The position numbers were made by a program, and so were the translations under genes. Shown here one piece after another: positions 14,685-35,436 of a DNA stretch of 64,000 nt. The stretch spans positions 768,001-832,000 of the forward strand of contig CAVYJM010000006.1 in assembly GCA_963768855.1 (NCBI GenBank), given 5' to 3'. Position 1 is the first letter of the stretch. Each line of letters starts with the position of its first letter. A model generated the notes under the pieces. That model was not told the origin of the DNA, searched no databases, and worked only from the letters and a program-made list of their open reading frames with translations. Source of the DNA: an uncultured Thermoplasmata archaeon. Its GTDB lineage: Archaea; Thermoplasmatota; Thermoplasmata; RBG-16-68-12.

Positions 14685-16131
14685 CTACGTGGCGGCGAGC
14701 ACCTTCGTCGCGGGTCGCTTCAGGGCCCGCTTCACGAACGCGTTGAGCTTGGCCTCGACCGCGGGCTCCAGGGGTGGATCGACGACGTGCTCCCGGAGGA
14801 CCGCCTCGGCGCGACGCGCGGCCTTCTCCGCTACGTCCATTCCCTCCCGCGAGATGCGGGATCCCCGCAGGAACGTGTCCGGGAGGAAGTGTTCCTGGCG
14901 GAAGTGGGAGAGGGTGTGCGGGTGGGCGAGGTAGGATCCGCGGAAGCCCGCGGACTCGATCACCTCGGTCGCCAGGGTTTCCTCCGAGACCTCGATCCCC
15001 GTGAGGATGCGCCGCACGGATCCCGCGAGGTCTCCGTCCAACACGAGCTTCGCGTAGCTGGCGCTGAGGCTCGATTCGAGGCTCCCAGCGACGTCGTAAA
15101 TGAAGTCGAACCCGGCGAGGCCGGAGAGCAGGAGCGTCGTGGCCGATTCGGCCCCGGCCTGATAGTCCGGGGAGAGGGCCTCCGTGTTCCCTCCGGTCCC
15201 GCGGGAGGGGATGCCGTAGTACCGCGCAAGTTGCGCGGCGCCCAGGGAGATGAGGCCCGCCTCGGGGGCTCCGAGCGCGACCGCTCCCGTCCGCATGTCC
15301 AGAATCGTCGAGACGCTCCCGTAGAGGACCGGAGCCCCGGGATGGACGCACTGGGCGACAGCGATCGACGCGAGGACTTCGGCGTTCTGCTGGACGAGGA
15401 CGCCCGCCAGGGTGGACGGCGCGGTGCCGCCCGCCATGCATTCCGGCGGCATGATGCACGGCTGTCCCGCCCGCGCGAATGCGACGAGCCCTTCCGTCGT
15501 CTCCTTGGCCAGGGTCAGCGGGCTCACAGGGTTCGTGAAGCCCAGGAGGAGCGGTCGTGCCTCGAGCTCGTCGCGGCCTCCCGCGACGATGGCCGCCATG
15601 TCGATCGTGTCCTGCGCGTATTGCCGGCCCCAGTTGTAGCCGTCCAGGGACTTCGTGCTGAACTTGAATCCGTACAGGACCTCGTAGAGGTGGACCGCCT
15701 CGTTCGGGACGTCCCGCGGCCACACGACCCAGGACGCATGGTCCAGGAACGGCGAGGCGTCGACGAGGCGATAGAAGGATTCAACGTCCTTCAGCGTCGG
15801 CGGGCGCACGTCCCCGTGTCCGTTCTCCACCTGGACGGCCGTGCCCATGCTGCTGAAGTACGTGTTCCCCTCCCCGAAGGCGAGGACGTGATCCGGCGCG
15901 CGTCCGTAGAGGCGGAAGCGGCTCGGCGCCAGGCAGGAGGAGCTGCTTCAGGGCGGTCTCCGGGATCCGGACGACCTGGCTCACGTCGTCGTAGGATGCA
16001 CCCGCGGTCTCGAGGGCCTTTGCGGCCTCCGGGTCCAGGATCCGCACTCCGGTCCGCTCGAGTACGCGCACCGTGGCTGCGTGGATCTTCTGCAATTCCC
16101 CGCGCGTGAAGGGTTCCAGACGAATCGTCAA
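14685..16131 (-). pseudogene. mttB: MttB-superfamily methyltransferase paralog 2, frameshifted near 15933-15936
   Basis: N-terminus (IHAATVRVLERTGV) lies in a different frame from the body (LAPSRFRLYG...GGTAPSTLAGVLVQQNAE); 1 extra base at CTC-CTGC-CTG. Confidence 0.85.
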
Positions 16132-16229
16132 GCTCCCCGTCCCCCCAACCGACCGCTCCCGATGGGACGAACCATCGTCACGTCTCCCCGGGACCCCGTG
16201 GATCCCTGGGCAAACTTTCGCATGGACCC

Positions 16230-16248
16230 ATGGAACTAATAGTTCCAT
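16230..16248. promoter_or_regulatory. Perfect inverted repeat, candidate operator
   Basis: ATGGAACT-AAT-AGTTCCAT in a divergent intergenic region. Confidence 0.5.
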
Positions 16249-16391
16249 CGTAATGACTGCATGATTGCCCCCTTTCCCGGATTCCTCAGGGGGAGTGTTC
16301 CGGGCAGATCGAGCGGACGCGTCCGCAGTTCGGGCGTGAAGGCTATGAGGGCCCGTCTCTCTTCCCCCGGCATGCGAGGTGGGGACCGACC

Positions 16392-16919
16392 GTGGACGCG
16401 GCCGACCGGGAAGTGACGCAGAGGGTCGGGGCGTTGCGCGGGGTCCTCCGCGTCGTGGCCTTGGCTCCCGAGGATCGCGAGGGCCTGATCCGGCACGGCA
16501 CCGCGGCGGCCGCCGAGAACCAGGGCGTGACGGAGGTCCTGTCCCGCCAGCGCGTTCTCTGCATCTTCAAAGACCCCTCGTTCCGTCCGCCGCCGGAGCC
16601 GACGCTCCTCCTGGTCGACGAGGCAGGGAAGGTCTTGGGTCGCGAACTCCTCCCCGGGGACGCGCCTCCCGCGGACCGTCGCGTCGCGCATCTGGGGAAG
16701 GATTTCGTGCTCTTCACCGGGGAGCGGCCGGAAGGGCACTACCGCTTCCTCCTCCCCCCGGTACGGTTCCCCGAGCTCGAATCGATCCCCCGCGTCGACC
16801 GCGTGGTCTCCGCGAGCCCCGACTCGCCGCAGGACGACTACCTACGTGCACGCTTCGACGTGCCGCTGGGACACCGGTACGCCTCCGTCCTCATCGGATA
16901 CGATGTGCGGAATCCTTAG
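16392..16919 (+). CDS. Hypothetical protein upstream of RACo
   Basis: 175 aa, SD-like GAGGTGGGG before GTG, protein-like composition, co-oriented 27 nt before RACo. Confidence 0.7.
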   Translation: MDAADREVTQRVGALRGVLRVVALAPEDREGLIRHGTAAAAENQGVTEVLSRQRVLCIFKDPSFRPPPEPTLLLVDEAGKVLGRELLPGDAPPADRRVAHLGKDFVLFTGERPEGHYRFLLPPVRFPELESIPRVDRVVSASPDSPQDDYLRARFDVPLGHRYASVLIGYDVRNP

Positions 16920-16946
16920 GTAGCGTCACGCGCCTCCCTTCTCCGC

Positions 16947-18788
16947 TTGGCGCAGCCCGTCGCAATCTTCCAGCCGGAGGGACGCCGCACCCGCGTGGGC
17001 GTGCGGGAAGACCTCCTGGACGCCGCCCGCCGATGCGGGGTCGGCCTCGAGGATCTCTGCGCGGGGCGAGGTACGTGCGGGAAGTGCAAGGTGCTCGTGC
17101 GCCGCGGCTCGGAGCTCCTCCGGCCCCCCGGCCCCTTCGAGGCCCACCTCACCAAGGAGGACCGCCAGCGCGGCGTCCGTCTTGCGTGCCAGTGCCGCCC
17201 CGCGGGCGAGGGGATCATCGTCCTCGAGGTTCCCCCGGAGTCGCAGCGGGGATGGCAGCGCCTCCAGACCTCCGGGCTCATGCCCGCCCACGGACTGGCC
17301 CCGGACCTCCGCAGGGTGCGGGCGCCCCGGATCCTCACGCCGGCGCGAATCCGGTCGTCGGGATGGCGGGTCGCACCCGGAGCGCTCGACGCCCTGGTCC
17401 CTCACGAAAAGCGGCGACCGACCGCTCGGAGCCTCGTCGTCTGGCGGAAGGAGGTCCTCGCGTGCCAGTCCCCGTCGGACCGGATCCTCGGGATGGCCTT
17501 CGACATCGGCTCGACCAAGATCGCCGGCTTCCTGATGGACTTGGAGACGGGCGACCCCTTGGAGACCGTCTCCGCCCCGAACCCGCAGATGGTCCACGGC
17601 GAGGACATCATGTCTCGGCTGGCGTTCGCCCGCGGCGGGCCCGCACAGGAAACCCTCCTCCACGAGGAGATCCTCGGGACCCTGAACGATCTGATTCGAA
17701 AGGGGTGTGCACTGGCCCACCAGCCCGTGGAACGGGTCTTCGAGGTCGTGGCCGTCGGGAACACGGCGATGCACCACCTCTTCCTCGGCCTCCCGACGGA
17801 CGGCCTCTCGCGCGCCCCGTACACTCCCTCCACGAAGCGGGAGGAGACGCGGCGCGCCGGCGCCTTCGGGCTTCACGTCGCTCGTGCCGCTGCGGTCGTC
17901 GCGCCCCCGGTCGTCGCAGCCTTCGTGGGGAGCGACCTGGTCGCGGGGGTCCTCGCTACCCGCCTCCATCGTTCCTCGCGGTTGCGGGTGTTCATCGACG
18001 TCGGCACGAACACGGAGATCTGTGCCGGGGGCCGAGGGCGGCTCGTCGCGTGCTCGACGCCCTCGGGTCCTGCCTTCGAGGGCGCGCACATCCGGTTCGG
18101 CATGCGGGCCGCCGATGGCGCGGTGGAGCGCGTCGCGATTGAGCCGGACACGTTCCATGTGGACTACCGGGTCATCGGCCGCATGAAGCCTCGAGGGCTG
18201 TGCGGATCGGCACTCCTCGACCTCCTCGCCGATCTCTTCCGTACCGGGGCGATCGACTCTGCGGGGCGGCTCCAGCGGCGGGTCGCAGCGCGCCGGATCC
18301 GGCGTCTCGGAGACCAGCTCGCGTTCCTTGTGGTCGACGCGGACGAGACCTCGATCGGACAGGACCTCCTCCTGACTCAGGACGACATCGGCCAGCTCCA
18401 GCTTGCCAAGGCGGCGATCCACGCCGGCATCGATCTGCTCCTGGACACGCTCCACCGTCCCGTGTCCGACATCCAGACCCTCTACCTGGCGGGCGCCTTC
18501 GGCAGCTACCTCGCGCCCGAGAGTGCCCGGGCGGTCGGCATGCTCCCGGACTTGCCGCTCGAGCGCGTCCAGTTCGTCGGGAACACGGCCGGGTCGGGTG
18601 CGCGTCTGGCCCTCCTCTCCATCCGGGAGCGCAAGGCGATGCGGGATATCGCGAGGCGCATCCGTCACAATCCTCTCGCTGGCGACCCGCGTTTCCCCCG
18701 GGAATTCGCCGCCTCCCTGTTCCTCCCGCACCGGGACGCCACGCGGTTCCCGAGCGTCACGCCGCGGCGGCGCGCGCCTGCTCGATGA
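16947..18788 (+). CDS. RACo-type ATP-dependent reductive activator of corrinoid proteins ([2Fe-2S]-ASKHA)
   Basis: CAGRGTCGKC...LACQC ferredoxin; FDIGSTK, IDVGTNTE, GPAFEG, GLCGS, LAGAFG, GNTAGSG. Confidence 0.92.
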   Translation: MAQPVAIFQPEGRRTRVGVREDLLDAARRCGVGLEDLCAGRGTCGKCKVLVRRGSELLRPPGPFEAHLTKEDRQRGVRLACQCRPAGEGIIVLEVPPESQRGWQRLQTSGLMPAHGLAPDLRRVRAPRILTPARIRSSGWRVAPGALDALVPHEKRRPTARSLVVWRKEVLACQSPSDRILGMAFDIGSTKIAGFLMDLETGDPLETVSAPNPQMVHGEDIMSRLAFARGGPAQETLLHEEILGTLNDLIRKGCALAHQPVERVFEVVAVGNTAMHHLFLGLPTDGLSRAPYTPSTKREETRRAGAFGLHVARAAAVVAPPVVAAFVGSDLVAGVLATRLHRSSRLRVFIDVGTNTEICAGGRGRLVACSTPSGPAFEGAHIRFGMRAADGAVERVAIEPDTFHVDYRVIGRMKPRGLCGSALLDLLADLFRTGAIDSAGRLQRRVAARRIRRLGDQLAFLVVDADETSIGQDLLLTQDDIGQLQLAKAAIHAGIDLLLDTLHRPVSDIQTLYLAGAFGSYLAPESARAVGMLPDLPLERVQFVGNTAGSGARLALLSIRERKAMRDIARRIRHNPLAGDPRFPREFAASLFLPHRDATRFPSVTPRRRAPAR

Positions 18789-20205
18789 GCTCGTCGAGCC
18801 TGCGGACCGTGTCGGCGGGCAACGGGTTGGGCGGGGCGTGGGTCAGGGCCTCCCGCACCTTGTCCCGGGCCCGGTCCTCCATGCTCCGGCTCCCGCTCGC
18901 GACCCAGAGGTCGTGGCTCCGGCGGTCCACGAGCCGCGGCTGAAAGTGTTCGGTCCGCAGGTGCTCCATCGTGTGCCGCTGCCCCAGGAACATGCCGCCG
19001 ATGCCCACCTTCTCGATCACGTCGAGCGCGAGATGATCCGCATCGACCATGATTCCGTCCGCGATGCGGCGGATCATGCTCACCATCTCGTCGTCGATGA
19101 AGAGCTGCTCCAGCCACAACGTCCGCGCGTCCTCCAGGAGTCCGATCCCGCAGATCAGGTCCGCGCCCCCGAGCACGAGCGACAGTCCGCTGGCAAACTG
19201 CTCCAGGGCGGCCTGCGTTCCGGGTACGGACGCCGTCGCGTCGAACCCGCCGCAGAGGCTTGGCACTCCATAGGCATGGGCGATCTGCGTCACGGCGGCG
19301 CCCGTGAGTCCATGCTCGGGCGACCCGCCGGCACGCGTGGTCGTCTTCATGTCGAGCGGGGCGATCCCCGTTCCCCAGATCACCGGGCACCCGGGATTCG
19401 CGAGCTGGCACATCGTGAGCCCGCTGAGGAATTCCATCGCCGCGACGACGACGGACCCCGCGAGCGTGACCGGCCCCGAGGTCCCCGGCCCCGGCATCGT
19501 GAAGATCGCCACGGGCACCCCGGCCTCCCCGAAGACGAACGCCGTGTCCATGTTCCCGCCATCGTGCTGGAGGGGGGCGATCGACGTGTGGACGGAGGAG
19601 ATGATGGGTCGCTTCCGGAGCGCTTCCCTCCCGCCGGTGACGGCTGCGGCCATGTCGACGAGCCGCCGTCCGTTCTCCGGCGTGACCGCCGTCGCGAACT
19701 GGACGTGCTTGTCCGTGTTCATCAATGAAACCTTGAGGTCGACGTAGGTCCGGATTCCGGGGGGCACATCTTGGGAGGTGACCATGGGCCAGAAGACATG
19801 GAGATTCTCGAGCGCGTTGGACACGATTGCCGTCTTGGCGAGGTCGGCCGCGGTCGAGGGGCGCCGCTCCCCCGTCTCGAAATCGATCGCGAGCGGTCCG
19901 TTCCCGTCGTTGCAGACGTGGACGTGCTGGAGATCGAGGTCCGCATCCTGGCTCGGACTCCGTCCGAACAGCGTGATGCGCTTCGCGGTGCGATTGAGCG
20001 CATCCTCGACCAGTGACGTCGGGATCCGCGCTACGTGGGTGGCCTCGTCCACGTGCGCGCCCGCCTCTGCAAGTAGCCGCCGTCCCCGGGCCGTCCCGAT
20101 CTTGACGCCGACCTTCTCGAGCTCGAGCAGGGCCGCTTGGTGGATCCGCCCGACGTCCTCTTTCGAGAGGACGGGATAGGGACGACGGATTGCGATCCCG
20201 CTCAT
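18757..20205 (-). CDS. mttB: MttB-superfamily methyltransferase paralog 3
   Basis: IHQAALLELEKVGV, IAPLQHD, SGPVTLAG, MDADHLALDVI/MFLGQRHT-type C-terminus; no internal TAG. Confidence 0.9.
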   Translation of the reverse strand: MSGIAIRRPYPVLSKEDVGRIHQAALLELEKVGVKIGTARGRRLLAEAGAHVDEATHVARIPTSLVEDALNRTAKRITLFGRSPSQDADLDLQHVHVCNDGNGPLAIDFETGERRPSTAADLAKTAIVSNALENLHVFWPMVTSQDVPPGIRTYVDLKVSLMNTDKHVQFATAVTPENGRRLVDMAAAVTGGREALRKRPIISSVHTSIAPLQHDGGNMDTAFVFGEAGVPVAIFTMPGPGTSGPVTLAGSVVVAAMEFLSGLTMCQLANPGCPVIWGTGIAPLDMKTTTRAGGSPEHGLTGAAVTQIAHAYGVPSLCGGFDATASVPGTQAALEQFASGLSLVLGGADLICGIGLLEDARTLWLEQLFIDDEMVSMIRRIADGIMVDADHLALDVIEKVGIGGMFLGQRHTMEHLRTEHFQPRLVDRRSHDLWVASGSRSMEDRARDKVREALTHAPPNPLPADTVRRLDELIEQARAAAA

Positions 20206-20858
20206 GAGTGCTTGCCGACGAGCTTCTGCGCCAGCCGCACCGCGCCGGACGCGTCGCCGGCCGTGCCGTCCGAGCCGATCTCCTTCGCGTACTGTTCCGT
20301 GACCGGCGCACCGCCGACGAGGAACTTCTCGCGCGAGCGGACGCCCTTCGTCTGCGCCGCGGCGAGCAGTTCCTTCATCCTCGGCATGGACGTCGTCATG
20401 AGGGCGGACACCCCGACGATCTCCGCGTTGATCTCCTTCGCCTTGGCGAGGATCGCGTCCGCGGGCTGGTTCACGCCCAGGTCGACGACGTCGAACCCGT
20501 TCGCCGTGAGCATCGTCCCGACGAGGTTCTTCCCGATCTCGTGAATGTCATCCTGCACGGTCGCGAGGACGACCTTGTGCGTCTCGCGCGCGGGCCCTCC
20601 CTTCGGCACGCGCGGTTCGAGGATCGCGACCCCGGTCCGCATCGTCTCCGCGGCCATGACGAGCTCGGGCAGGAAGCACTCGCCCGCACCGAACTTCTGG
20701 CCGACGTCGCGGATTCCAGCTCCCAACCCTTTCTCGATTCCGGCGAGCGGATCCATGCCGTGATCCAGAGCCTCCTTGGCCAGGGCGGGCATGCCTTCCA
20801 TGTCGTATTCCATGACGGCTTTCTTGAGTCGCGCTACGTAGTCCTCCGTGGTGTTCAC
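20202..20858 (-). CDS. Corrinoid (B12-binding) methyl-accepting protein, MttC/MtqC-like
   Basis: Cap domain GECFLPELV; DIHEIGKNLV (DxHxxG), VSALMTT, VGGAP; stop overlaps the mttB3 ATG. Confidence 0.93.
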   Translation of the reverse strand: MNTTEDYVARLKKAVMEYDMEGMPALAKEALDHGMDPLAGIEKGLGAGIRDVGQKFGAGECFLPELVMAAETMRTGVAILEPRVPKGGPARETHKVVLATVQDDIHEIGKNLVGTMLTANGFDVVDLGVNQPADAILAKAKEINAEIVGVSALMTTSMPRMKELLAAAQTKGVRSREKFLVGGAPVTEQYAKEIGSDGTAGDASGAVRLAQKLVGKHS

Positions 20859-20977
20859 CTCCGCCGTGCGGTGAACCGGGACGTGCCGTGGGGTGGAAAA
20901 CCTTTTGGCTCTTACCTTGTGCCGCAAACCTTGACATACTCCTTCCGGTTTCCCGCTGCACCTCGGGAGGCGGTGGA

Positions 20978-22534
20978 ATCGCATCCTACGATGCTGTCGT
21001 CATCGGCGCAGGCCACAACGGTCTCGTCGCGGCGAACTACCTCGCGAAAGCGGGTCTTCGCGTCGCAGTGGTGGAGCGCTCGGACCGGGTGGGCGGGGCC
21101 AGTGTCACGGACGAAATCGCCCCGGGATTCAGGGTGAGCGCGGCCGCCTACGTGTCGGGCCTGTTCCGCCCGCAGATCATCGAGGACCTCGAGCTGGCGA
21201 AGTACGGCCTGCGTCAGATCGCCTTCGACCCGCAGGCCTTCTGCCCATTTCCGGATGGCCGCTCGCTCCTCCTGTGGAGTGACGTCGAGCGCACGTGCAA
21301 GGAAGTCGCCCGGTTCTCGAAGAAGGATGCGGAAGGGTACCGCCGCTACGCGGCCTTCTGGGACTCGTTCTACGAGCTGATCGAGCCGATGCTCCTGTCG
21401 CCTCCCGTCCCGGTGGCCGATCTCGTGGACCTGATGCGGGGGGCAGAGGCGGAGGAGCTCATGCGGCGCCTCCTGTTCTACAGCGCCGAGGAACTCCTCG
21501 ACGAGTACTTCGAGTCGCCGGAGGTGAAGGCCGCCCTGGCGAACCAGAGCATCATCGGGCATTTCGCGGGGCCGTCCTCCCCATGCACCGCATTCACGCT
21601 GAGCCACAACCTCCTGGGGAACATCAACGGCGTCGTGGGCGCATGGGGCTTCACGGTGGGAGGCATGGGTGGGATCCCGGACGCTCTTGCCAAGGCCGCG
21701 CGGGCGCGCGGCGTGGAGATTCTCCTGAACGCCCCGGTCGGACGGGTCGTCACCGCGAACGGGCGAACGACCGGGGTGAGGCTCGAGGACGGTCGTGTCC
21801 TCGAATCGAAAGCGGTCCTCTCCAGTGCCGATCCGAAACGGACCTTCCTGGGAATGGTCGAGCCCGACGCGCTTCCATCCGAATTCCTCCGGGCGGTCTC
21901 CCGTATCAAGATCCACGGAGCCGCGATGAAGGTCAACTGCGCATTGTCGGAACTTCCGGAGTGGACGGCGCGGCCCGGTGGTCCCGGTCCGCACCACCGT
22001 GGGTCGACGTACCTCTGTCCCTCCATCGAGTATGTGGAGGCGGCGTTCGCGGACGCCAAGCGCGGAATCCCATCCCGAGCTCCGTGGATGGAGGTCGTCA
22101 CCCAGAGCGTCCTGGATCCGAGCGTCGCCCCTCCGGGGAAGCACACCCTCTCCGTCTACGTGCAGTACACGCCGTACCATCTCGCATCGAACTCCTGGGA
22201 CGACATTCGGGAAGCGTACGCGGACACGGTCCTGGAGACCCTCGCGCAGTACGCTCCGAACGTCCCGGACGCGGTCCTCGCCCGCGAAGTCCTCACGCCT
22301 CTCGATCTGGAGCGCCGGTTCGGGCTCACGGAGGCGCATCAGTCGCACGGAGAGATGGGCCCGGACCAGTTCTTCTCCTTCCGGCCCGTGCCCGGCTGGT
22401 CCAACTACCGCATGCCGATCCGGGGCCTCTACCTCTGCGGCGCGGGAACGCACCCCGGCGGCGGAGTGATGGGCGCACCCGGATACAACGGCGCGCAGGC
22501 CGTGATCGAGGATTGGGCCAGCCTCAAGGCGTGA
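20978..22534 (+). CDS. FAD-dependent oxidoreductase, phytoene desaturase/PYROXD2-like (copy 1)
   Basis: GAGHNGLVAA, APPGKH, GLYLCGAGTHPGGGVMGAPG; start proposed at ATC 20978 (alternative GTG 20888). Confidence 0.88.
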   Translation: MASYDAVVIGAGHNGLVAANYLAKAGLRVAVVERSDRVGGASVTDEIAPGFRVSAAAYVSGLFRPQIIEDLELAKYGLRQIAFDPQAFCPFPDGRSLLLWSDVERTCKEVARFSKKDAEGYRRYAAFWDSFYELIEPMLLSPPVPVADLVDLMRGAEAEELMRRLLFYSAEELLDEYFESPEVKAALANQSIIGHFAGPSSPCTAFTLSHNLLGNINGVVGAWGFTVGGMGGIPDALAKAARARGVEILLNAPVGRVVTANGRTTGVRLEDGRVLESKAVLSSADPKRTFLGMVEPDALPSEFLRAVSRIKIHGAAMKVNCALSELPEWTARPGGPGPHHRGSTYLCPSIEYVEAAFADAKRGIPSRAPWMEVVTQSVLDPSVAPPGKHTLSVYVQYTPYHLASNSWDDIREAYADTVLETLAQYAPNVPDAVLAREVLTPLDLERRFGLTEAHQSHGEMGPDQFFSFRPVPGWSNYRMPIRGLYLCGAGTHPGGGVMGAPGYNGAQAVIEDWASLKA

Positions 22535-22677: not shown

Positions 22678-22729
22678 CCTCGATGTCGCCCAGTGGCTCG
22701 GAGGCTCGAATTGACAGGAGGTGAAGGAC

Positions 22730-24160
22730 ATGGCGGTACTGCGGACGAAGTTCCTCGAGCGTGGCGAAGAAGACCTGATTCACGAGCAGAGCCTGAAGAG
22801 TCTGCAGGAAATCGGCGTCCTGATCCACAGCCCCGGCGTGCTCCAGATGCTGAAGGAGGCGGGGGCCGATGTCGACCTCAAGACGGAGATCGCGAAGATC
22901 CCGGAGTCCCTCGTCAAGGACGCGCTCAAGAAGGCCCCGAAGCGGATCCGGTACTGCGGCCGCGACTCGAAGCGCGACTTCGAGATCCCCACCGAGCGGT
23001 GGCCCTTCACCGCGACGAACGGCCTCGCGGTCCACATCGCCGACCTCGAGACCGGGAAGGATCATCCATCCACCCGTGCAGACCTCGCGGGTTTCTCGAG
23101 GCTCGCCGACGCCCTCGATCCAATCGACTACCTCTGGACATCGCTGACCGCCACGGACGTGCCCGAGGTGTCCCATGGTCTCCACGAGCTCTGGATCACC
23201 CTGCAGAACACGACCAAACATGTGGAGAGCATCACGGTGGCGGGTGCGGCCGATGCGAAGGCCCAGATCGCCCTGGCCGCCTTGGTGGCCGGCGGCGAGG
23301 ATGCCTTGAGGAAGCGGCCGCTGATGTCCGTGGTCTCGTGCCCTACGGCACCGCTCACGTTCAACCAGGTCGCGGTGGAGGCCCAGGTCGAGTTCGCAAA
23401 AGCCGGCGTCCCGGTCCTGTCGATGTCCATGTCGATGGGCGGCACGACGAGCCCCGTGACCGTCGCCGGGACGATCGTGAACATCAACACGGAGAACCTC
23501 GCGAGCCTCGCGATCGACCAGGTGGCCGCTCCAGGCTGCCCGCACATCTACACCTCGGATTCCACTCCAGTCGACATGAAAACTGGCTACATCGACTACA
23601 CGGCGTCCGAGACGCCGATGATCTGTGCTGCAGCGGTCCAGATGGCGAGACGGTACAAGCTCCCGTGCATGACGTCTGGATGGGGCGCCGCGGTCGGGAC
23701 GGAGGTCGGACTGCCGGCCTTCTCCGAGCTCGCGGGCATCATGGTCTCCGCCATGGGCGGCACGGACCTCTCCGCGGGAATGGGCGGACTCGACCACGCG
23801 AAGGGCGGCTCGTACGAAATGATGGTGCTCGACGCCGCGATCTGGGAGGACGTGCGCGCCTTCATGCGGGACATGACCGTCTCCGAGGAGACGATCGCGC
23901 TCGATGTGGTGCGGCAGGTGGGGCATGGCAACACCTTCCTGCGGCACCCGCACACCGTCCAGAACTTCCGGAAGGAGCTCTACTTCCGCGATGCCCAGAA
24001 GCTCGGCTGGCAGGCGACCCTTTCGAGCCGCATGATCCCGGAAGCCCGTGGCATCGCGAAGAAGATCCTGAAGGACCACGAGGTGCGGCGTTTCGACAAG
24101 GACGTCCTGCGCGACGGCGACGCGCTCATCCGTGCGTACGAGAAGGAGCACGCGTCCTGA
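22730..24160 (+). CDS. mttB: MttB-superfamily methyltransferase paralog 4
   Basis: IHEQSLKSLQEIGV, PTAPL, TSPVTVAG, IALDVVRQVGHGNTFLRHPHT; ATG after GGAGGTG. Confidence 0.88.
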   Translation: MAVLRTKFLERGEEDLIHEQSLKSLQEIGVLIHSPGVLQMLKEAGADVDLKTEIAKIPESLVKDALKKAPKRIRYCGRDSKRDFEIPTERWPFTATNGLAVHIADLETGKDHPSTRADLAGFSRLADALDPIDYLWTSLTATDVPEVSHGLHELWITLQNTTKHVESITVAGAADAKAQIALAALVAGGEDALRKRPLMSVVSCPTAPLTFNQVAVEAQVEFAKAGVPVLSMSMSMGGTTSPVTVAGTIVNINTENLASLAIDQVAAPGCPHIYTSDSTPVDMKTGYIDYTASETPMICAAAVQMARRYKLPCMTSGWGAAVGTEVGLPAFSELAGIMVSAMGGTDLSAGMGGLDHAKGGSYEMMVLDAAIWEDVRAFMRDMTVSEETIALDVVRQVGHGNTFLRHPHTVQNFRKELYFRDAQKLGWQATLSSRMIPEARGIAKKILKDHEVRRFDKDVLRDGDALIRAYEKEHAS

Positions 24161-26970: not shown

Positions 26971-27390
26971 ATGGAGACGAGCGAGCACGTGCCGGAAATG
27001 CTGGAGCCGATTGGGAAAGTCCTGCGTCGGCATCCCAAGGTGAACCGCCAACTCAATCGGGCCCTCGCGCCGTTTGAGAACTCGGCGAAGGTGCTGATGT
27101 TCAGCTGCAACATGTGCGGTCAATGTCTCCTCCACGAGAACGGCTACACCTGCTTGATGAACTGCCCCAAGCAGCTCCGGAACGGCCCCTGCGGCGGCGT
27201 CCGGATGAACGGGCACTGCGAGGTGAAGGCGGACATGGAATGCGTCTGGCTGAAGGCGGAGCGGCGCTCGCGCCGCTTCCCCGGACGCTACCTCTTCCTG
27301 CGGATTCATGCGCCCCTCGACTGGCGGAGGAAAGGAAGCTCCGCCATTCTGAACGCAATCGCAGGGTGGCCGGGTAACGGGAAGGAATGA
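26971..27390 (+). CDS. MTHFR C-terminal-like Cys-rich subunit (MetV-like)
   Basis: CNMCGQC, CLMNCPKQLRNGPCGG, CEV, CVW; ATG after GGAGGTG. Confidence 0.85.
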   Translation: METSEHVPEMLEPIGKVLRRHPKVNRQLNRALAPFENSAKVLMFSCNMCGQCLLHENGYTCLMNCPKQLRNGPCGGVRMNGHCEVKADMECVWLKAERRSRRFPGRYLFLRIHAPLDWRRKGSSAILNAIAGWPGNGKE

Positions 27391-28427
27391 CCATGCTCCC
27401 CGCCGAGCCCCAGCGGGGCCGCTTCGAGCGCGCGCTGCGCTCGGGCCGTCCCGTGGTGACGTGTGAGATCGGCAGCCCGGATGGCGCGGATCCCGCCGAC
27501 ATCCGCAAGCGCGCGAAACTCGTGCGCGACTGGGTCGACGCGGTCAACGTCCCCGACAACACGGGCGGGGTCGTCCACGCGTCTCCCCTCGCGGCGTGCG
27601 CGATCCTCGTCCAGGAGGGAATCGACCCGGTCCTGCACATGACCTGCCGGGACCGGAACCGCATGGCCCTCCAGAGCGACATGCTCGGAGCGGCCCTCCT
27701 CGGAATCCGCAACATCCTGTGCCTCACCGGAGACCACATGATCCACGGCGATCAACCGGAGACCAAGCCGGTCTATGACGTCGACTCCGTGATCCTGCTC
27801 GAGATCGTGAACCACCTGACCCACCAGGGCAAGTATCTCAGCGGCCGAGAGATCGATCCTCCGCCGGACCTGTTCCCCGGCTGCGCCGCGGAACCCTTCG
27901 CCCCTCCCTACGAATACCGACCGCTCCGCCTCCAGAAAAAGGTCGAGGCGGGCGCCCAGTTCGTCCAGACGCAGATCGTGTTCAACGTGGACCGGTTCCG
28001 CGAGTACATGGGCCGGGTGCACGACCTCGGGGTCGACAAGCGGGTCCCGATCCTCGCGGGAGTCGCCCCGATCCGATCCGTCAAGGCCGCGACCTTCATG
28101 CGGGACGAGGTCCCGGGCATGGAAGTCCCGGACCGCCTCGTGCGCCGCATGGCGCAGGCGGGCGACGACAAGAAGAAGCGAGAAGCCGAGGGGATCGCGA
28201 TCTGCGTCGAGATCATCGAGGAGATCCGGAAGATCCCGGGCGTCGCGGGGTTCCACATCATGCCGATCAACTGGGAATCCGCGGTGGCCAAGATCTCCCG
28301 CGAGGCGCACCTGCAGCCCGCCATCGCCTCCCCGAAAGCGCCTGCCGATGTGGCGAAGGCCGTGGCGCCCGCCACGTTCGTCGCGCCCGCATCCGCCGTG
28401 TCTCTGTCGCTCCAGCCGAAGTCCTAG
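27387..28427 (+). CDS. metF: Methylenetetrahydrofolate reductase
   Basis: DAVNVPDN, HMTCRDRN, NILCLTGDH, KKVEAGAQFVQTQ, GFHIM; ATGA overlap with metV. Confidence 0.92.
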   Translation: MTMLPAEPQRGRFERALRSGRPVVTCEIGSPDGADPADIRKRAKLVRDWVDAVNVPDNTGGVVHASPLAACAILVQEGIDPVLHMTCRDRNRMALQSDMLGAALLGIRNILCLTGDHMIHGDQPETKPVYDVDSVILLEIVNHLTHQGKYLSGREIDPPPDLFPGCAAEPFAPPYEYRPLRLQKKVEAGAQFVQTQIVFNVDRFREYMGRVHDLGVDKRVPILAGVAPIRSVKAATFMRDEVPGMEVPDRLVRRMAQAGDDKKKREAEGIAICVEIIEEIRKIPGVAGFHIMPINWESAVAKISREAHLQPAIASPKAPADVAKAVAPATFVAPASAVSLSLQPKS

Positions 28428-28438
28428 GAGGAGATTCG

Positions 28439-29429: not shown

Positions 29430-30785
29430 GTGGCGAAGTCGTCCAAACCCAGGGTCGGCGCGAAGGGCTCGTCCGAGTACTACTGGAAGAAGTACGAGCA
29501 GTACTTCCCGAAGTATTTCTGGGCCGACGAGACGCGGCTCGCGAACATCGTCCTCAAGAGCGCGAAGGGCTCGACGCTCGTCGACATGGACGGCAAGGAG
29601 TACATCGACCTCACGAGCCAATGGTCGACGAACAACCTCGGGAACGTCCATCCGGAGATCCTGGCGGCCACGGTCGACGCGCTCGAGCGGTACGGCTTCC
29701 TGATCTACTTCATGAACCCCCACCTCCCGATGATCGAGCTGGCGGAGAAGCTCCTCGAGATCCGGCCTTCCCCCAACCTCACCCGGGTCTTCCTCGAGCT
29801 CTCCGGAACCGGAGCGTCCGAGGCCGCCGTCAAGCACGCAATCGAGGGCACGCATCGCCCGCTGATCCTGAGCTTCATGGGCCAGTACCACGGCCTGAGC
29901 ATCGGGGCGACCGCCTTCGGGAGCTTGGGCGCGCGGTGGCGGCGATACTGGGAGGCGTTCTCCGGGGGAGCCGTCCACGCCCCCTATCCGCGGCCCTATC
30001 GCAAGCCGGAAGGGATGACGGACGCGGAGTACGGCGACTTCTGCCTCACGTTCCTGGAGGACCAGATCCTCCGCTATGTTGCGCATCCCGAGCGGATCGC
30101 GGGCCTCATCCTCGAGCCCGTGGCGCTCGAGGCCGGGGTCTGGATTCCGCCCGTCAACTTCGTGCGCGGGCTGAAGAAGCTGGCAGAGCAGTACGATTGG
30201 TTCTTCATCGCGGACGAGGTCGAGGCGGGACTCGGCCGTTGCGGGAAGATGTGGAGTATCGAGCACTTCGGCGTGTCTCCGGACATGATCTCGATCGGCA
30301 AGGCGCTCGGCGGCGGCCTCATGCCCATCTCCGCGGTCCTGGGGACCGACCGCGCGATGAGCGAACACGAGGTCGTCGCGGGGACGACGTTCGGCGGCCA
30401 TCCAGCCGCCTGCGTGGCGGCGAGCACCGCGATCGGCATCATGGTGCGGGACCGCATCGCCGAGAGGTCCGCGCGGCTCGGGGCCAAGGCGCTGAAGCGC
30501 GTGAAGGAGTGGGAGGATCTCCCCCTCGTCGGGGAGGTGCGAGGACTCGGCCTGGCGATCGGGGTCGAGCTCGTCTCGAGCAAGAAGTCGAAGGCCCGTG
30601 CTCTGAAGGCGACGCGATCCGTGTTCTTCGACTGTGTCGAGCACGGTGTCGTCCCGCTCTACGACTATGACATGAACGTTCTGCGAATCCAGCCGCCGCT
30701 CACGATCGAAGAAGCTTATCTGGATCGCGCCCTCGACGTGATGGAGGAATCTCTCCAGCGCGCGTCTCGTCGGGGAGCGGATTAG
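29430..30785 (+). CDS. Class III PLP aminotransferase (GABA/omega-amino acid type)
   Basis: GQYHG, ILEPV, IADEVEAGLGRCG, DMISIGKALGGG, TFGGHP. Confidence 0.9.
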   Translation: MAKSSKPRVGAKGSSEYYWKKYEQYFPKYFWADETRLANIVLKSAKGSTLVDMDGKEYIDLTSQWSTNNLGNVHPEILAATVDALERYGFLIYFMNPHLPMIELAEKLLEIRPSPNLTRVFLELSGTGASEAAVKHAIEGTHRPLILSFMGQYHGLSIGATAFGSLGARWRRYWEAFSGGAVHAPYPRPYRKPEGMTDAEYGDFCLTFLEDQILRYVAHPERIAGLILEPVALEAGVWIPPVNFVRGLKKLAEQYDWFFIADEVEAGLGRCGKMWSIEHFGVSPDMISIGKALGGGLMPISAVLGTDRAMSEHEVVAGTTFGGHPAACVAASTAIGIMVRDRIAERSARLGAKALKRVKEWEDLPLVGEVRGLGLAIGVELVSSKKSKARALKATRSVFFDCVEHGVVPLYDYDMNVLRIQPPLTIEEAYLDRALDVMEESLQRASRRGAD

Positions 30786-32000
30786 GTCTTCCCCTCGTCT
30801 GGGCGGGTTTCTTCAGGCCTTCCGGTGGGGCGGGTCGTAGAATGGCCGCTCGACGACCGTGGCGGGGGCGCGCTTCCGTTCCCACTCGACCTCGACTTCG
30901 ATCTCGAGAGTCGTGCCAAGGTGGGCGTACTCGGAACGTACCGTCGCGATTCCGATGTACTTCTTGAGGGTCGGGGACCAGCAGCCGCTCGTGCCCCAGC
31001 CCACCTGGCGGAAACCGGAGTAGATGGGGACCTTCGACGTCCACGGATCCGACGGCGGGGTGGGAGGCAGCCCCAGGTCGGTGAAGTACTTCGAGGCGGT
31101 CGGCCAGTCGATTTCGATCCCGACGGTCCGACGAGGCACGCCTTGTCGTAGCTCCTGCGCGAGCGCGGGCTTTCCGACGAACGGTCCCTTGTTCATCGAG
31201 ACCGTCCAGTCGAGGCTGAGTTCGAAGGGAGAGTACCGTTGGGCGTCGATCAGCGCGCTCCTCGAGTGGATGTAGTCCACTTCGGCGAGGACGAATCCCG
31301 CCTCGATGCGGCAGACGTCCATGGCCACCTGGCCAGCCAGCTGCATATGGTGCGGTCCGCCGTACTTCATGATCGAGTCGAAGAGCTGCTCGGCCTGGTC
31401 GCGATCGACCCAGACCTCGTAGCCGAGGTCACCCGTGTATCCCGTGCGGGAGATCTCCACGGGGATTCCCTCGATCTTCGCCGTGGTGAATCGGAAGAAC
31501 TTGAGCTTGTCCAGTGCGGAGCCTGCTGCGTCCCGCAGGATGGCCTTCGAGCTGGGTCCCTGGAGGGAAAGCGTCCCGATGTCCTCCGACACATCCTCCA
31601 CGTGGACGTCTAGGCCAATCCCGTTGTCCTCGATCCACTTAAGGCTCGGCTGGGCCGAGGTGAGCCGGAAGCTGCCGTCGCCGTAGTTCCAGATCGTGCC
31701 GTCGTCGACGACCTTCCCCCGGTCGTCGCACCACGGGGTGTAGACGACGTGCCCTTTCGAGAACTTTCGGAGGTCCCGCGTCACGATCTTGTTGAGCACG
31801 CGCTGCGCGTCCTTGCCGTCGATCCGATACTTGTAGAGCGGGGATACGTCGATCAAGCCCGCGGTGTGTCGGATCGCGTAGTACTCCATGTAGGGGACGA
31901 CGGAGTACGAGCTCGCGGAGAGGTAGCCGGACCAGGCCTGCCATTCCCAGCTCTGGCACAGCGGAAATGTCCGCGAGTGAAAGGGTGATCCCTTCAGCAC
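30782..32000 (-). CDS. GcvT-like folate-binding aminomethyltransferase family protein
   Basis: IDVSPLYK, DDGT, SLQGP, ISRTGYTGDLGYE, RIEAG, WSPTL, PFYDP. Confidence 0.88.
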
Positions 32001-32147
32001 GGTTCCTCCTCCCGTCCCGACGTCGCTGGAGCGCTGCTCGCAGGCCCGTCGTCAATCCGTTTTCGGGAAGAGCCGCTCAGGGATAAGCGTTTCGGAGAGC
32101 CGAACTTCGTCTTCGATATCGAACGATAGATAAAATCGGCGGCTTGA

Positions 32148-32162
32148 GAAAAAACGCTATAT
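32148..32162 (+). promoter_or_regulatory. BRE-TATA for the flavoprotein pair
   Basis: GAAAAAACG-CTATAT, about 90 nt upstream of TTG 32249. Confidence 0.55.
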
Positions 32163-32248
32163 CCCGGGGACGGCTTCCCCGCGCAGGGCCGGCGTCTAAC
32201 ACTCGGCCGATGACCGATGGAAGCGAGCCTTGGGGAGGAGGACGGGAA

Positions 32249-33847
32249 TTGCAGTCCGGTCAGGCGTACGACGCGATTGTCATCGGCGGAGGGCACAACG
32301 GACTCGTAGCGGCGGCGTACCTCGCGCGTGCCGGCAAGAAAGTCCTCGTCCTGGAGCGCCGCCACCTCGTCGGTGGTGCGGCGGTCACGGAGGAGGTCTT
32401 CCCCGGATTCAAGTTCACGGTCTGCTCGTACGTTTGCTCCATGTTGCGGCCCGCGGTGATCCGCGAGCTCGAGCTGCCGAGATTCGGCCTGACCGTGATC
32501 CCCCAGGAATGCAACTTCATCCCTTCTCGAGACGGCCGGTACCTGTTCTACCGTGGGGACGAGGAGGACACCCACAACGCGGTCCTCGCCTTTTCGAAGC
32601 ACGACGCGGAAGCCCTGCCCCGCTACGACGCCCTGATGGTGCGCCTCTGCAAGTTCATCCAGCCGCTCCTCGACATGGCCCCGCCGGATCTCGCCTCGTT
32701 CCATCCGAACGAGCTGCGGAAGCTGATGAAGCTCGCCGCGCCCCTCCAGGAGCTGTCCGAGGAGGAGGTCTACGAGTTCGCCCGCGTGATGACGATGAGC
32801 GCCGCGGATTACCTCGACGAGTGGTTCGAGGGTGATCTCCTCAAGGCAGCGTTGTGCGCGAGCGGGATCATCGGGACGCTCCTGGGCCCCCGGTCTCCCG
32901 GGACGGCCTACGTGCTCCTCCATCACTCCATGGGGGAGATCGACGGAGCGTACCGGTCCTGGGGGTACGTCCGCGGGGGGATGGGCGCGCTGAGTGCGTC
33001 GATCGCGGCGTCCGCAACCCATCTCGGGGCGAACATCCGCACGAACGCGGAGGTGCGTCAGGTCCTCGTCCAGAACGGACGCGCGGTGGGTGTGGAGCTC
33101 GCCACGGGCGAGAGGCTTCATTCGCGGGTCGTCCTCTCGGACTGCGACCCGAAGCGGACCTTCCTGAAGTTCCTGGACCCTCAGACCCTGCCCGAGGACT
33201 TCGTCCGCGGTATCCGGAACTTCAACATCGAAGGGTCCTCCGGGAAGGTCAACATCGCCCTCGACTCGTTCCCCGACTTCAAAGTCCTCCCGGGCTACGG
33301 CCCCCATCTCCAGGGAGACGTGACGATCGGGGACAGCATGGACTACATGGAGAAGGCCTACGAGGACGCGAAGTACGGTGACTTCTCGCACCGCCCTTAC
33401 ATCGACATGTGCATCCCCTCGACCCTCGATCCCACGATCGCGCCTCCGGGCAAGCACGTCATGTCCAACTTCGTCCAGTACGCGCCGTACCATCTCCGGA
33501 AGGGTACCTGGCCCGATCGCCGGGAAGAGTTCGGAGAGACGGTGATCGACACGATCGAGGAGCACGTCCCGAAGATTCGCGAGATCATGGTGGGCAAGCA
33601 GGTCCTGAGCCCCTGGGACCTGGAGCAGGAGTTCGGGCTCACGGGGGGCAACATCTTCCACGGCGAGTTGACGCCGAACCAGCTCCTGTTCTTCCGACCC
33701 GTGCCCGGGTGGGCCCAGTACCGGACGCCGGTCAAGGCGCTCTACCTGTGCGGCTCCGGGGCCCACCCCGGCGGCGGTGTGATGGGCGCGCCGGGACGGA
33801 ACGCCGTGATCGAGGTCCTGAAGGACATGACCCTGAGGCGGGTGTGA
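32249..33847 (+). CDS. FAD-dependent oxidoreductase, phytoene desaturase/PYROXD2-like (copy 2)
   Basis: GGGHNGLVAA, GGAAVTEE, GGNIFHGE, LYLCGSGAHPGGGVMG; TTG after GGAGGAGG. Confidence 0.9.
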   Translation: MQSGQAYDAIVIGGGHNGLVAAAYLARAGKKVLVLERRHLVGGAAVTEEVFPGFKFTVCSYVCSMLRPAVIRELELPRFGLTVIPQECNFIPSRDGRYLFYRGDEEDTHNAVLAFSKHDAEALPRYDALMVRLCKFIQPLLDMAPPDLASFHPNELRKLMKLAAPLQELSEEEVYEFARVMTMSAADYLDEWFEGDLLKAALCASGIIGTLLGPRSPGTAYVLLHHSMGEIDGAYRSWGYVRGGMGALSASIAASATHLGANIRTNAEVRQVLVQNGRAVGVELATGERLHSRVVLSDCDPKRTFLKFLDPQTLPEDFVRGIRNFNIEGSSGKVNIALDSFPDFKVLPGYGPHLQGDVTIGDSMDYMEKAYEDAKYGDFSHRPYIDMCIPSTLDPTIAPPGKHVMSNFVQYAPYHLRKGTWPDRREEFGETVIDTIEEHVPKIREIMVGKQVLSPWDLEQEFGLTGGNIFHGELTPNQLLFFRPVPGWAQYRTPVKALYLCGSGAHPGGGVMGAPGRNAVIEVLKDMTLRRV

Positions 33848-33848
33848 C

Positions 33849-35436
33849 GATGCAGGCCGCCTACGATGTCGTCGTGATCGGTGGGGGCCACAACGGCCTG
33901 GTCGCGGCGTCCTACCTCGCCCGCGCGGGTCGACGCGTGCTCGTCCTCGAGCAGCGAGCCTCCGTCGGCGGCGCGGTCACCACGGAAGAGATCCGCCCCG
34001 GGTTCCGGGCGCCGACCGGCGCGGCCGTGTGCGGCCTCTTCCGTCACGAGATCATCGATGACCTCGAGCTGATCCGCCACGGGCTTGCGTTCGTCCCGTT
34101 CGACCCCGCCTCCGTCGTGCTCGGGGAGGGAGGGAGGGCGCTGCCCCTCTGGCATGACATACGCAGGGCCCAGCTCGAGATTGCCAAATTCTCCCCCGCA
34201 GACGCGGCCGCCTATCCTCGGTTCCGCGCCCTGATGGCCCAAGTGGCCCGCGTGCTCGATCCGTTGATGCTGTCGATCCCGCTCAGCATCGCGGACCCAA
34301 CCATCGCGGACGGGTGGTTCCTGCTCGGCCGCGCCTTGAGGCTCCGCCGCCTCGGACGCGACACGATGTACGAGTTCCTGAGGATGCCGCCGATGTCCCT
34401 CCACGACTACCTCGGGGAATGGTTCGAGGACGAGACGCTCAAGGCCGGTCTCTCCGTCGACTCCCTCTTCGGGATGTTCCGGGGCCCTTGGTCTCCGGGC
34501 ACCGCGTTCGGGTTGATCCACCACTTCCTCGTGGATGCGAACGGCGGGAGGTGGGCCTTCATCCGAGGCGGGAGCGCGACCCTGTCGAACGCGCTGGCCT
34601 CCGCGGCCCAGGCCCACGGCGTCACGATTCGCACGAACGCGGAGGTCCGGCACATCCTCAGCCCGGACGGCCGCGCGACGGGCGTGGAGCTGGCAAACGG
34701 CGAGACGGTCCTCGCGCGGGCGGTCGTCTCCACCGCCGATCCGAAGAAGACCTTCCTGGCCCTGGCCGACCCGCTCATCCTGGGGGCCGATTTCCAGATC
34801 CGCGTGAAGAACTACAACTCGGAGGGCTGCGTCTCGAAGGTGAACATCGCCTTGGACGCGGCGCCCCGGATGCCCGCGGTGGGCGACGGTCTGGTGCCTC
34901 ACTTCCAGATTGCGCCGTCCATGGAGTACATCGAGCATGCGTACGACGACGCGAAGCATGGGGACGTATCCGCGTCTCCCTTCCTCGACGTGGTCGTTCC
35001 CACGGCCGTCGACCCGAGCCTCGCGCCCCCGGGGAAGCACATCCTCTCCATCCTCGTGCAGTACACGCCCTATCATCTGAAGAAGGGGAGCTGGGCGGAC
35101 CGGCGCGGGGATCTCGGCGAACGGGTCCTCGATCTCCTCCAGCCCCACGTGTCGAACGTCCGCTCCGCGCTCGCCGGGATGGAGGTCCTGACGCCGGCGG
35201 ATCTCGAGACGCGCTTCGGCCTGACGGGCGGTCACATCTTCCACGGCGAGATGACGCTCGACCAGCAGTTCGTGCTCCGCCCCGTCCCGGGGTGGGGCCG
35301 GTATCGCACGCCGATCCCCGGACTCTATCTCGCCGGATCGGGAAGCCACCCGGGAGGCGGCGTGACCGGGGCGCCCGGGTACAACGGCGCCCAGGCGGTC
35401 CTCGAGGATTGGGCCTCCATCGTCCGGGGGAGCTGA
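33849..35436 (+). CDS. FAD-dependent oxidoreductase, phytoene desaturase/PYROXD2-like (copy 3)
   Basis: GGGHNGLVAA, GGHIFHGE, LYLAGSGSHPGGGVTG; starts 1 nt after the copy 2 stop. Confidence 0.9.

Follow-up and report, generated by a model that had tools for sequence, protein, structure and literature searches.

Four parts define a corrinoid methyltransferase system: a substrate methyltransferase (MT1), a corrinoid protein, a second methyltransferase (MT2) and an activase. In the aerobic bacterium Ruegeria pomeroyi, such a system, consisting of MtgB, MtgC, MtgD and MtgE together with MetF2 and RamA, was proven genetically in 2025 (PMC12478193). The MtgB/MtgC/MtgA, MtcB, MtpB and MtyB systems of Desulfitobacterium hafniense and Eubacterium limosum also join an MT1, a corrinoid protein, an MT2 directed to tetrahydrofolate (THF, also H4F) and an ATP-dependent activase (PMC13080624, PMC12155760). 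For the Thermoplasmata, MttB and corrinoid genes without pyrrolysine (Pyl), and without MtaA or Mcr, were reported in 2020/21 from the orders RBG-16-68-12 and UBA10834 (Zinke et al., bioRxiv 10.1101/2020.03.09.984617). An H4F methyl branch together with mttB was described in these archaea in 2024, from metagenome-assembled genomes (MAGs) of the Slate River, with MT2 described as missing (PMC11264602). Fhs, FolD and MTHFR, along with enriched KOs of betaine catabolism, have been reported in non-methanogenic Thermoplasmata (bioRxiv 10.1101/2020.03.09.984617; PMC11264602; Ca. Angelarchaeales, PMC9038741), and the paper on Ca. Yaplasmales (PMC9239135) has nothing on these genes. Those earlier Thermoplasmata papers left the role of MttB open or called the second methyltransferase missing. 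Here we analyze a 64,000-nucleotide stretch of DNA from an uncultured Thermoplasmata archaeon (GenBank assembly GCA_963768855.1, contig CAVYJM010000006.1, positions 768,001 to 832,000), referred to below as the window, in which MT2, a RACo-type activase, MetVF and a core-MetE-like protein are clustered with MttB genes in a conserved layout.

Gene content of the probable methyl-transfer cluster

Because the GC content of the window is 66%, genes were called by third-position GC (GC3), and their proteins were scanned against Pfam and NCBIfam. The scans recovered every component that a first-pass annotation of the same DNA had listed, including an intact form of each of the four parts that define a corrinoid methyltransferase system. 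The genes concerned are the following, in window positions.

1415..2863, plus strand: MttB paralogue a (MttB_a), a non-Pyl MT1; PF06253, 316 bits
14685..16131, minus strand: MttB paralogue b (MttB_b), frameshifted here; two PF06253-family fragments in different frames
16392..16919, plus strand: 175-aa conserved protein of no known family (unk175)
16947..18788, plus strand: RACo-type ATP-dependent reductive activase; Fer2, Raco_middle and RACo_C_ter domains ([2Fe-2S] plus ASKHA); AcsV model, 393 bits
18757..20205, minus strand: MttB paralogue c (MttB_c), the MT1 beside the corrinoid protein; PF06253, 293 bits
20202..20984, minus strand: corrinoid (cobamide-binding) protein, MtgC/MttC-like; B12-binding_2 (PF02607) and B12-binding (PF02310) domains
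20888..22534 (longest open reading frame, ORF), plus strand: PYROXD2/CrtI-like FAD protein 1 (FADox1); Amino_oxidase domain; CrtO model, 352 bits against a cut-off of 1000
22721..24160, plus strand: MttB paralogue d (MttB_d); PF06253, 236 bits
24165..25655, minus strand: MttB paralogue e (MttB_e); PF06253, 279 bits
25743..26672, minus strand: core-MetE-like protein (the MetE catalytic barrel alone); Meth_synt_2, 36.8 bits
26878-27390, plus strand: MetV; DUF5981 (PF12225)
27387-28427, plus strand: MetF; PF02219
28439..29347, plus strand: MT2, a methyl-THF:corrinoid methyltransferase (MtgA/MtgD/AcsE-like); Pterin_bind; NF005719, 276 bits against a cut-off of 259

We consider it probable that the window is the sole hub of a methyl-transfer system that depends on cobamides and leads from the MttB proteins through the corrinoid protein to THF and, probably, to homocysteine. 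In the proposed route, the deeply diverged, Pyl-free MttB proteins would each shift a single methyl group from an N-methyl amine, quaternary or otherwise, to the Co(I) corrinoid protein, from which the single pterin-binding MT2 would hand it to THF. MetVF would oxidize the methyl-THF to methylene-THF, and FolD and Fhs would take this on to formate with a gain of ATP, or to biosynthesis. The core-MetE-like protein would probably draw methyl groups from the same corrinoid protein for methionine, for which MT2 could also run in reverse. RACo would re-reduce oxidized Co(II) at the cost of ATP, perhaps aided by the 175-aa protein. Finally, the neighboring genes may strip the remaining methyl groups oxidatively and then deaminate the product. 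The sequences show the identities of the genes, their copy numbers, their synteny and the lack of competing sinks; we infer the substrates, the direction of flow, the methionine branch and the roles of the GcvT-like, PYROXD2-like, Rieske and aminotransferase neighbors.

The locus resembles the Ruegeria system in its non-Pyl MttB-family MT1, separate corrinoid protein, pterin-binding MT2 to THF, MetF paralogue and activase, and also in its link to methionine synthesis and its oxygen-respiring host. It differs from that system in several respects. The host is an archaeon, with 10 MttB loci (five in the window) against two MttB-family proteins in Ruegeria. The homocysteine module is a core-MetE (Meth_synt_2) instead of a BHMT/MetH-type S-methyltransferase, MetF is paired with MetV, and the activase, which has a [2Fe-2S] domain, belongs to the RACo type. 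A predicted nitroreductase-fold protein, and not DUF1638, is the product of the accessory gene, and no cobamide synthesis genes (CobS, CbiC) were found. The first-pass annotation had put the cluster forward as the main candidate for a new system. Since MT1, corrinoid protein, activase, MT2, MetF and a methionine link have all been shown together in aerobic bacteria (Ruegeria; PMC12478193), the cobamide part is not a new system; nor is it new to the lineage, where non-Pyl MttB/corrinoid genes and the H4F branch were already on record (bioRxiv 10.1101/2020.03.09.984617; PMC11264602). The clustering is real, the functional interpretation given to it was largely sound, and the pathway is of a known kind in a new archaeal form.

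The MttB paralogues

Five MttB loci lie in the window and 10 distinct ones in the genome. Their pairwise identity of 27-66% is consistent with different substrates. An eleventh locus, at C1:5372-6766 (C numbers denote contigs of the assembly), encodes a protein 100% identical to that of C6:868210-869604; this pair is probably an assembly redundancy, in line with the contamination estimate of 7.7%. Four mttB genes and a fifth at 1415 had been annotated at first. All five loci were found, and the copy at 14685-16131 is frameshifted in this assembly, its frame being broken by one extra base at position 15934. This base is missing from the contigs of three runs belonging to three studies, and its removal restores a frame of 481 codons. 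Given that the orthologues in four related loci (L019-L022; L numbers denote loci compared) are also each encoded in a single frame, the break in mttB_b is either an assembly error or a strain-specific lesion.

No in-frame stop occurs at any MttB locus. The column that corresponds to Pyl is occupied by S, Q, D, T, G or N; it is Gln in MttB_a, and in MttB_c Asp322 stands where MttB 7xcl has its Pyl residue. The best PylS match in the genome scored 20 bits against a cut-off of 178, and pylBCD were not among the genes searched. The lack of in-frame stops and the PylS score bear out the description of these proteins as pyrrolysine-free. In their fold (220-225 bits to 7xcl) and their cognate corrinoid protein they are like the methanogen MttB/MttC/MtbA system; unlike it, the genome has no pyrrolysine, Pyl machinery, CoM methyltransferase or Mcr that we could find, and the predicted acceptor is THF. 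NCBIfam offers only a generic Pyl-MttB model for them, with scores below the cut-off. The closest solved structure to MttB_a is MtgB 9yce (263 bits), a point of likeness to the MtgB systems of anaerobes. The locus departs from the Desulfitobacterium and Eubacterium systems in that the MtgB ligands are not conserved and that the host is aerobic and lacks the carbonyl branch of the Wood-Ljungdahl pathway. Outside the clade, the nearest relative of MttB_c has about 52% identity and an archaeal-looking context.

The corrinoid protein, the activase and its upstream neighbor

The corrinoid protein carries the DxHxxG motif as DDIHEIG. It scored 195 bits with the MtgC model and 197 bits with TIGR02370, both under the curated cut-offs. 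At their longest, the corrinoid and FADox1 ORFs run into each other (20860-20984 and 20888-20990), and the first ~45 residues of the corrinoid ORF appear non-native. For the corrinoid protein and two of the flavoproteins, translation probably begins further downstream than the longest ORF suggests: near 20860 for the corrinoid protein, and about 100 nt into the longest ORF (~20990) for FADox1.

RACo, MT2, core-MetE and MetV are each present in one copy in the genome, which makes the window the hub of the system. A satellite unit is located at C17:104613-111052 (L060) and contains two MFS genes, a corrinoid protein gene and two MttB genes, without an MT2 or activase of its own. The C17 corrinoid protein is 95% identical to the window copy. 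The nearest named relatives of RACo outside the clade, at 41-45% identity, are from Bathyarchaeia, Korarchaeota and Nitrososphaerota, all archaeal.

The gene of the 175-aa protein lies directly upstream of RACo in 10 of 10 related loci. With Pfam, the protein gave no hit at a threshold as loose as E<=10, which leaves an equivalence with DUF1638 unsupported. A Foldseek search against the PDB gave nothing at E<=0.001, and matches in the atlas, to DUF2284 and nitroreductase, were weak (TM 0.47-0.48). The AF2 model has a pLDDT of 88 and a pTM of 0.82. Among the top 50 VIA structural matches of this model, 45 were nitroreductase/BluB/IYD flavoproteins, at modest Z scores of 5-7.5. These results suggest a predicted nitroreductase/BluB-like fold. 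We speculate that the protein may act as an electron donor or cobamide handler for RACo, or in the reactivation of the corrinoid protein.

The folate branch and a putative core methionine synthase

The metV and metF genes overlap by 4 nt (27387-27390), and their products have the features of a MetVF-type methylene-THF reductase. FolD and Fhs are encoded in the genome on a different contig from the cluster, with a second, housekeeping copy of MetF near FolD on C11. MCH, the marker of the H4MPT pathway, and CdhC (ACS) were not found in the genome. With MT2, MetVF, FolD and Fhs all present, the view of the cluster as folate-linked holds.

The homocysteine-binding motifs GS, DGE and DEP are retained in the core-MetE-like protein, and so are H-x-C and the final Cys, as seen in four orthologues; three Zn-ligand positions are kept, and the Glu-ligand column is Ala. 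It has no sequence match in the PDB. Among the genomes of the genus, this type was detected only in those with RACo, whereas all 38 carry a housekeeping MetE pair in tandem. The host copy of the pair, at C6:561409-563312, consists of an N-domain-like gene and a catalytic gene and is likely the housekeeping split MetE. Given the retained homocysteine motifs and the RACo-restricted occurrence beside a universal MetE pair, core-MetE is a plausible corrinoid-fed methionine synthase, and it probably takes methyl groups from the corrinoid protein of the cluster to form methionine. It is like MesA, MesB and MesC (PMC7857596, PMC7005905) in being a lone MetE barrel without the folate domain, with homocysteine motifs and His/Cys/Cys, beside a corrinoid system. 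Unlike for these proteins, the donors proposed for MesB/C and MesA, the Wood-Ljungdahl pathway and Mtr, respectively, are apparently lacking in the host (mtr was not searched), and the donor here would be an MttC/MtgC-like protein.

The same genes could also be read the other way round, as a split cobalamin-dependent methionine synthase in the first place. MetF would then produce methyl-THF, MT2 would load the corrinoid protein, core-MetE would methylate homocysteine, and the MttB proteins would be extra methyl donors for methionine and S-adenosylmethionine rather than for energy. This accords with the finding that core-MetE, MetV, MetF and MT2 stay together even where the cluster is rearranged (L022), and with the view that core methionine synthases take methyl groups from corrinoid proteins (PMC7857596). 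However, the housekeeping MetE pair in all 38 genus genomes makes such a route unneeded for prototrophy, and an anabolic supply of methyl groups would not call for as many as ten MttB loci, for additional transporters or for a complete THF oxidation branch that includes Fhs. We regard methionine synthesis as the primary purpose as quite unlikely, although it is not exclusive of the methyl-harvesting route, since Ruegeria does both.

Conservation of the cluster in related Thermoplasmata

The relatives found with RACo (n=10) are all uncultured Thermoplasmata, including RBG_19FT_COMBO_69_17 and one Slate River MAG. The unit unk175-RACo-MttB_c-corrinoid protein is conserved in 8 of these 10 loci, with RACo identities of 56-85%. 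Two loci (L024 and L026) keep unk175, RACo and the corrinoid protein, the corrinoid gene directly following RACo. FADox1 is kept between the corrinoid protein and MttB_d in L018, L019 and L021. The extension FADox1-MttB_d-MttB_e-core-MetE is kept in L018 and L019; L018 continues into MetV, MetF and MT2, whereas L019 ends at core-MetE. In L022, the RACo unit is immediately preceded by core-MetE, MetV, MetF and MT2, and this differing arrangement argues for selection on proximity. The clustering first noticed in the window is thus conserved in relatives, which supports the functional interpretation.

The host and its metabolic setting

The window sits on a 1.13-Mb contig of a 2.87-Mb Thermoplasmata MAG in 24 contigs, with a completeness of 93.6% and an estimated contamination of 7.7%. 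An archaeal small-subunit (SSU) rRNA gene and a gene for haem-copper oxidase subunit I (COX1, 529 bits) are on the same 1.13-Mb contig as the cluster. The rRNA gene and the restriction of all relatives to Thermoplasmata MAGs support the archaeal origin put forward in the first-pass annotation. A haloarchaeal source, which the GC content of 66% might suggest, is rejected because the relatives are all Thermoplasmata. Neither the host genome nor any of the 79 genomes of its order (0/79) has mcrA, in agreement with the non-methanogenic habit suggested earlier. By its gene content, the host is an aerobic (oxygen-respiring), non-methanogenic archaeon. Metagenomes that contain DNA of the cluster come from wetland and freshwater sediment. 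For RNA, no data set is listed as containing the cluster or mttB_c, a result that does not bear on whether the genes are expressed.

No competing methyl sinks were found. The first-pass annotation had noted that mcr, mtr, MtaA/MtbA-type and pyl genes are lacking in the window. For mcrA and PylS, this extends to the whole genome; mtr and pylBCD were not searched. For MtaA/MtbA, it depends on how the sole URO-D homologue in the genome is read. This homologue scored 419 bits on the general URO-D model and adjoins a class-III aminotransferase homologue. From this score and the neighboring gene it appears to be HemE; the MtaA/MtbA model was not run.

MetVF-type reductases and RACo are typical of acetogens, and related Thermoplasmata orders have been proposed as methylotrophic acetogens (PMC11264602). 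The cluster might on these grounds serve methanogenesis or, in line with a proposal for Ca. Gimiplasmatales, methylotrophic acetogenesis under anaerobic conditions. We disfavor both as extremely unlikely: CdhC/ACS and MCH were not found in the genome and mcrA was found neither there nor in the order, the haem-copper oxidase is encoded on the same contig, and O2-dependent Rieske oxygenases occur in and near the cluster.

Neither CobS nor CbiC was found in the genome, so the host is probably a cobamide auxotroph that relies on import. Even so, it encodes 10 MttB loci and two corrinoid proteins, and a B12-binding radical-SAM gene lies at window 59383-60831.

Several observations weigh against the hub and the route proposed for it. 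First, the MtgB glycine-betaine ligands Y97, R312, H348 and F356 are S, S, L and F in MttB_a, and at most one of the four is present in any paralogue, with the alignment of the loop regions being uncertain. As no paralogue keeps the ligand set, the substrates need not be betaines. Second, core-MetE scored 112 bits on the PRK00957 model against a cut-off of 258, far under the curated cut-offs for methionine synthases and unlike MesA/B/C, and its Glu-ligand column is Ala. Third, RACo orthologues are present in only 11 of 37 genus-mates, which makes the trait accessory, and because the cluster comprises at least eight transcription units, co-regulation is unproven. In addition, no cobamide transporter was identified in the genome, although the cofactor would need to be imported. 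Finally, the contamination estimate of 7.7% and the location of FolD and Fhs off the contig are a concern for the assignment to one organism; yet the cluster, the 16S rRNA gene and COX1 share one contig.

A GcvT-like, PYROXD2-like and Rieske module

Beside the cobamide genes, the window contains a second set of genes with a possible role in demethylation.

2874..4127, plus strand: Rieske non-haem-iron oxygenase alpha subunit, distantly GbcA-like; Rieske and Ring_hydroxyl_A domains
29430..30785, plus strand: class-III (omega) aminotransferase; Aminotran_3, 288 bits; co-directional with MetV-MetF-MT2
30813..32000, minus strand: stand-alone GcvT-like THF-binding protein; GCV_T and GCV_T_C domains
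32144-33847 and 33850-35436, plus strand: tandem PYROXD2/CrtI-like FAD proteins 2 and 3 (FADox2 and FADox3); Amino_oxidase domains; divergent from the GcvT-like gene

The GcvT-like protein scored 268 bits with the Tdm model and 171 bits with PDB 9q59, and is closest to the C-terminal (THF) domain of trimethylamine N-oxide demethylase. The three flavoproteins are labeled PYROXD2-like by the atlas; they scored 290-350 bits with the CrtO model, and their nearest solved relative is CrtI (55 bits). The Rieske protein scored 211 bits with the GbcA model against a cut-off of 670 and therefore falls short of a GbcA equivalog. The locus is like DMGO/DMGDH, heterotetrameric sarcosine oxidase and Tdm in that a GcvT-type THF domain goes with a C1-releasing oxidative step, which is predicted here. 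It is unlike them in that the THF protein is a separate gene and that the flavoproteins are of the CrtI/PYROXD2 family and not of the DAO family.

The GcvT-like gene is present in 37 of 37 genus-mates, and a FADox2-type gene flanks it in 13 of 13 genus loci. A class-III aminotransferase is next to it in four close relatives. A second module in the host, at C21:47329-57283 (L059), contains a GcvT-like gene, three PYROXD2-like flavoprotein genes and a Rieske oxygenase gene, without an MttB gene. The neighbors of this module, which hint at (poly)amine metabolism, are two genes of the saccharopine-dehydrogenase-like type, two GNAT acetyltransferase genes, and genes for an AHSA1-domain protein and an FKBP. 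Six distant homologues of the GcvT-like protein (36-45% identity) come from DNA with a GC content of 0.38-0.69; in five of the six loci, a FADox2-type gene is immediately downstream, with overlapping stop and start. In one of the loci compared, L061 (GCA_024639065.1, GC 38%, bacterial-looking, carrying Lnt), GcvT-like, FADox2, FADox3-type and Rieske genes form a tight operon, and the Rieske homologue is 36% identical to the window Rieske protein. GcvT-FADox coupling without a Rieske gene is found in L062 and L064. Because the coupling recurs in distant organisms, it appears to be ancient and independent of cobamide genes. A complex prediction for FADox2 and the GcvT-like protein scored 0.12 against a mark of 0.32 with no controls, which is evidence neither way.

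This distribution raises the question of whether the window holds two or three independent units side by side (the cobamide system, an older GcvT/PYROXD2/Rieske module, and beta-oxidation genes) without a common pathway. Independence would account for the contrast between the GcvT-like/FADox module in 37 of 37 genus-mates and RACo in 11 of 37, for the module on C21 without any MttB gene, and for the module in distant organisms with no cobamide genes nearby. However, RACo-positive genomes have an extra, window-type GcvT-like copy (>=74% identity), which is on the RACo contig in two genomes (G065 and G036) and adjoins the corrinoid protein gene, MttB_a or the Rieske gene, depending on the genome. 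In three relatives, the FADox1 gene also sits between those of the corrinoid protein and MttB_d, and the cobamide and oxidative units would both feed or use the THF C1 pool. We consider separate units possible but doubtful. On the conserved gene neighborhood, we think that flavin and Rieske routes may operate beside the cobamide system, as had been suggested from the first inspection of the sequence.

The enzymes of the module could have other functions. The PYROXD2-like proteins might be reductase partners of the Rieske protein or C-C desaturases acting on lipids or CoA esters, and the GcvT-like protein might be a direct THF methyltransferase of the DmdA/LigM type. The nearest solved or curated relatives of the flavoproteins are indeed carotenoid desaturases and ketolases, no Rieske reductase gene (GbcB-type) was recognized in the window, the GcvT-like protein matches the DmdA and LigM models weakly, and acyl-CoA genes flank the cluster. 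Against these assignments, its best matches are the THF/formaldehyde-trapping domains of the oxidative demethylases Tdm, DMGDH, DMGO and SoxA, and the GcvT-FADox pairing also occurs where there is no Rieske gene (L062, L064). Few genetic factors are known to affect trimethylamine and dimethylamine in urine as strongly as human PYROXD2, and to our knowledge no reaction has been assigned to the PYROXD2 family. The human PYROXD2 locus has been associated with N-methylamine levels, including urinary trimethylamine (PMC4564198), which also speaks against desaturase or reductase functions. We therefore regard these other functions as unlikely.

Taken together, the recurring GcvT-FADox coupling and the human association suggest a THF-coupled oxidative N-demethylase. 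We tentatively propose that the GcvT-like protein and the tandem PYROXD2-like pair, often with a Rieske protein, form an undescribed, widespread enzyme system of this kind, downstream of or parallel to the MttB step; the proposal is speculative, and the opposite outcome is easier to imagine. An MttB or Rieske enzyme would remove one methyl group and the flavoprotein pair two more, with the formaldehyde being caught as methylene-THF, and the primary amine would pass to the adjacent class-III aminotransferase. We found no paper linking PYROXD2 with a demethylase and tetrahydrofolate.

Transport and acyl-CoA genes around the cluster

Further genes of the window are a transport system and several genes of acyl-CoA metabolism.

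35-1324, plus strand: ATPase of an Opp/Dpp-type importer
4124..9061, minus strand: Opp/Dpp-type ABC importer, with two permeases and a 982-aa SBP_bac_5 binding protein (Pfam)
6113-9061, minus strand: the SBP_bac_5 binding protein, 982 aa, with PKD and CarboxypepD_reg domains
9920-11074: acyl-CoA dehydrogenase (Pfam), a context gene
35439..39976: thiolase, family-III CoA-transferase and fused 3-hydroxyacyl-CoA dehydrogenase/enoyl-CoA hydratase (Pfam), context genes

Opp/Dpp-type importers also adjoin MttB clusters in L019, L021 and L041. Such importers are unusual for betaine uptake, and the one in the window may have a role in the uptake of the substrates. Thiolase, CoA-transferase and HADH genes also follow the cluster in L022; the link of the acyl-CoA (beta-oxidation) genes to the cluster is uncertain.

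Implications

The MT2 that had been called missing in these Thermoplasmata is now found, clustered with MttB genes, which closes a gap in the literature. If the proposed route is correct, cobamide-dependent demethylation of methylated amines would extend from aerobic marine bacteria to abundant uncultured archaea of soil, wetland and sediment. These archaea respire O2, apparently cannot make cobamides, and would compete with methylotrophic methanogens for methane precursors. Two further predictions follow from the cluster: RACo would have a partner with a nitroreductase fold, and a core methionine synthase would be fed by a corrinoid protein in a host that is neither a methanogen nor a user of the Wood-Ljungdahl pathway. 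The oxidative module is less understood than the cobamide part and may be the freshest part of the locus. The GcvT-like/PYROXD2-like/Rieske operon offers a tractable prokaryotic entry to PYROXD2 function and, if the proposed N-demethylase is true, would provide the first biochemical function for the PYROXD2 family.

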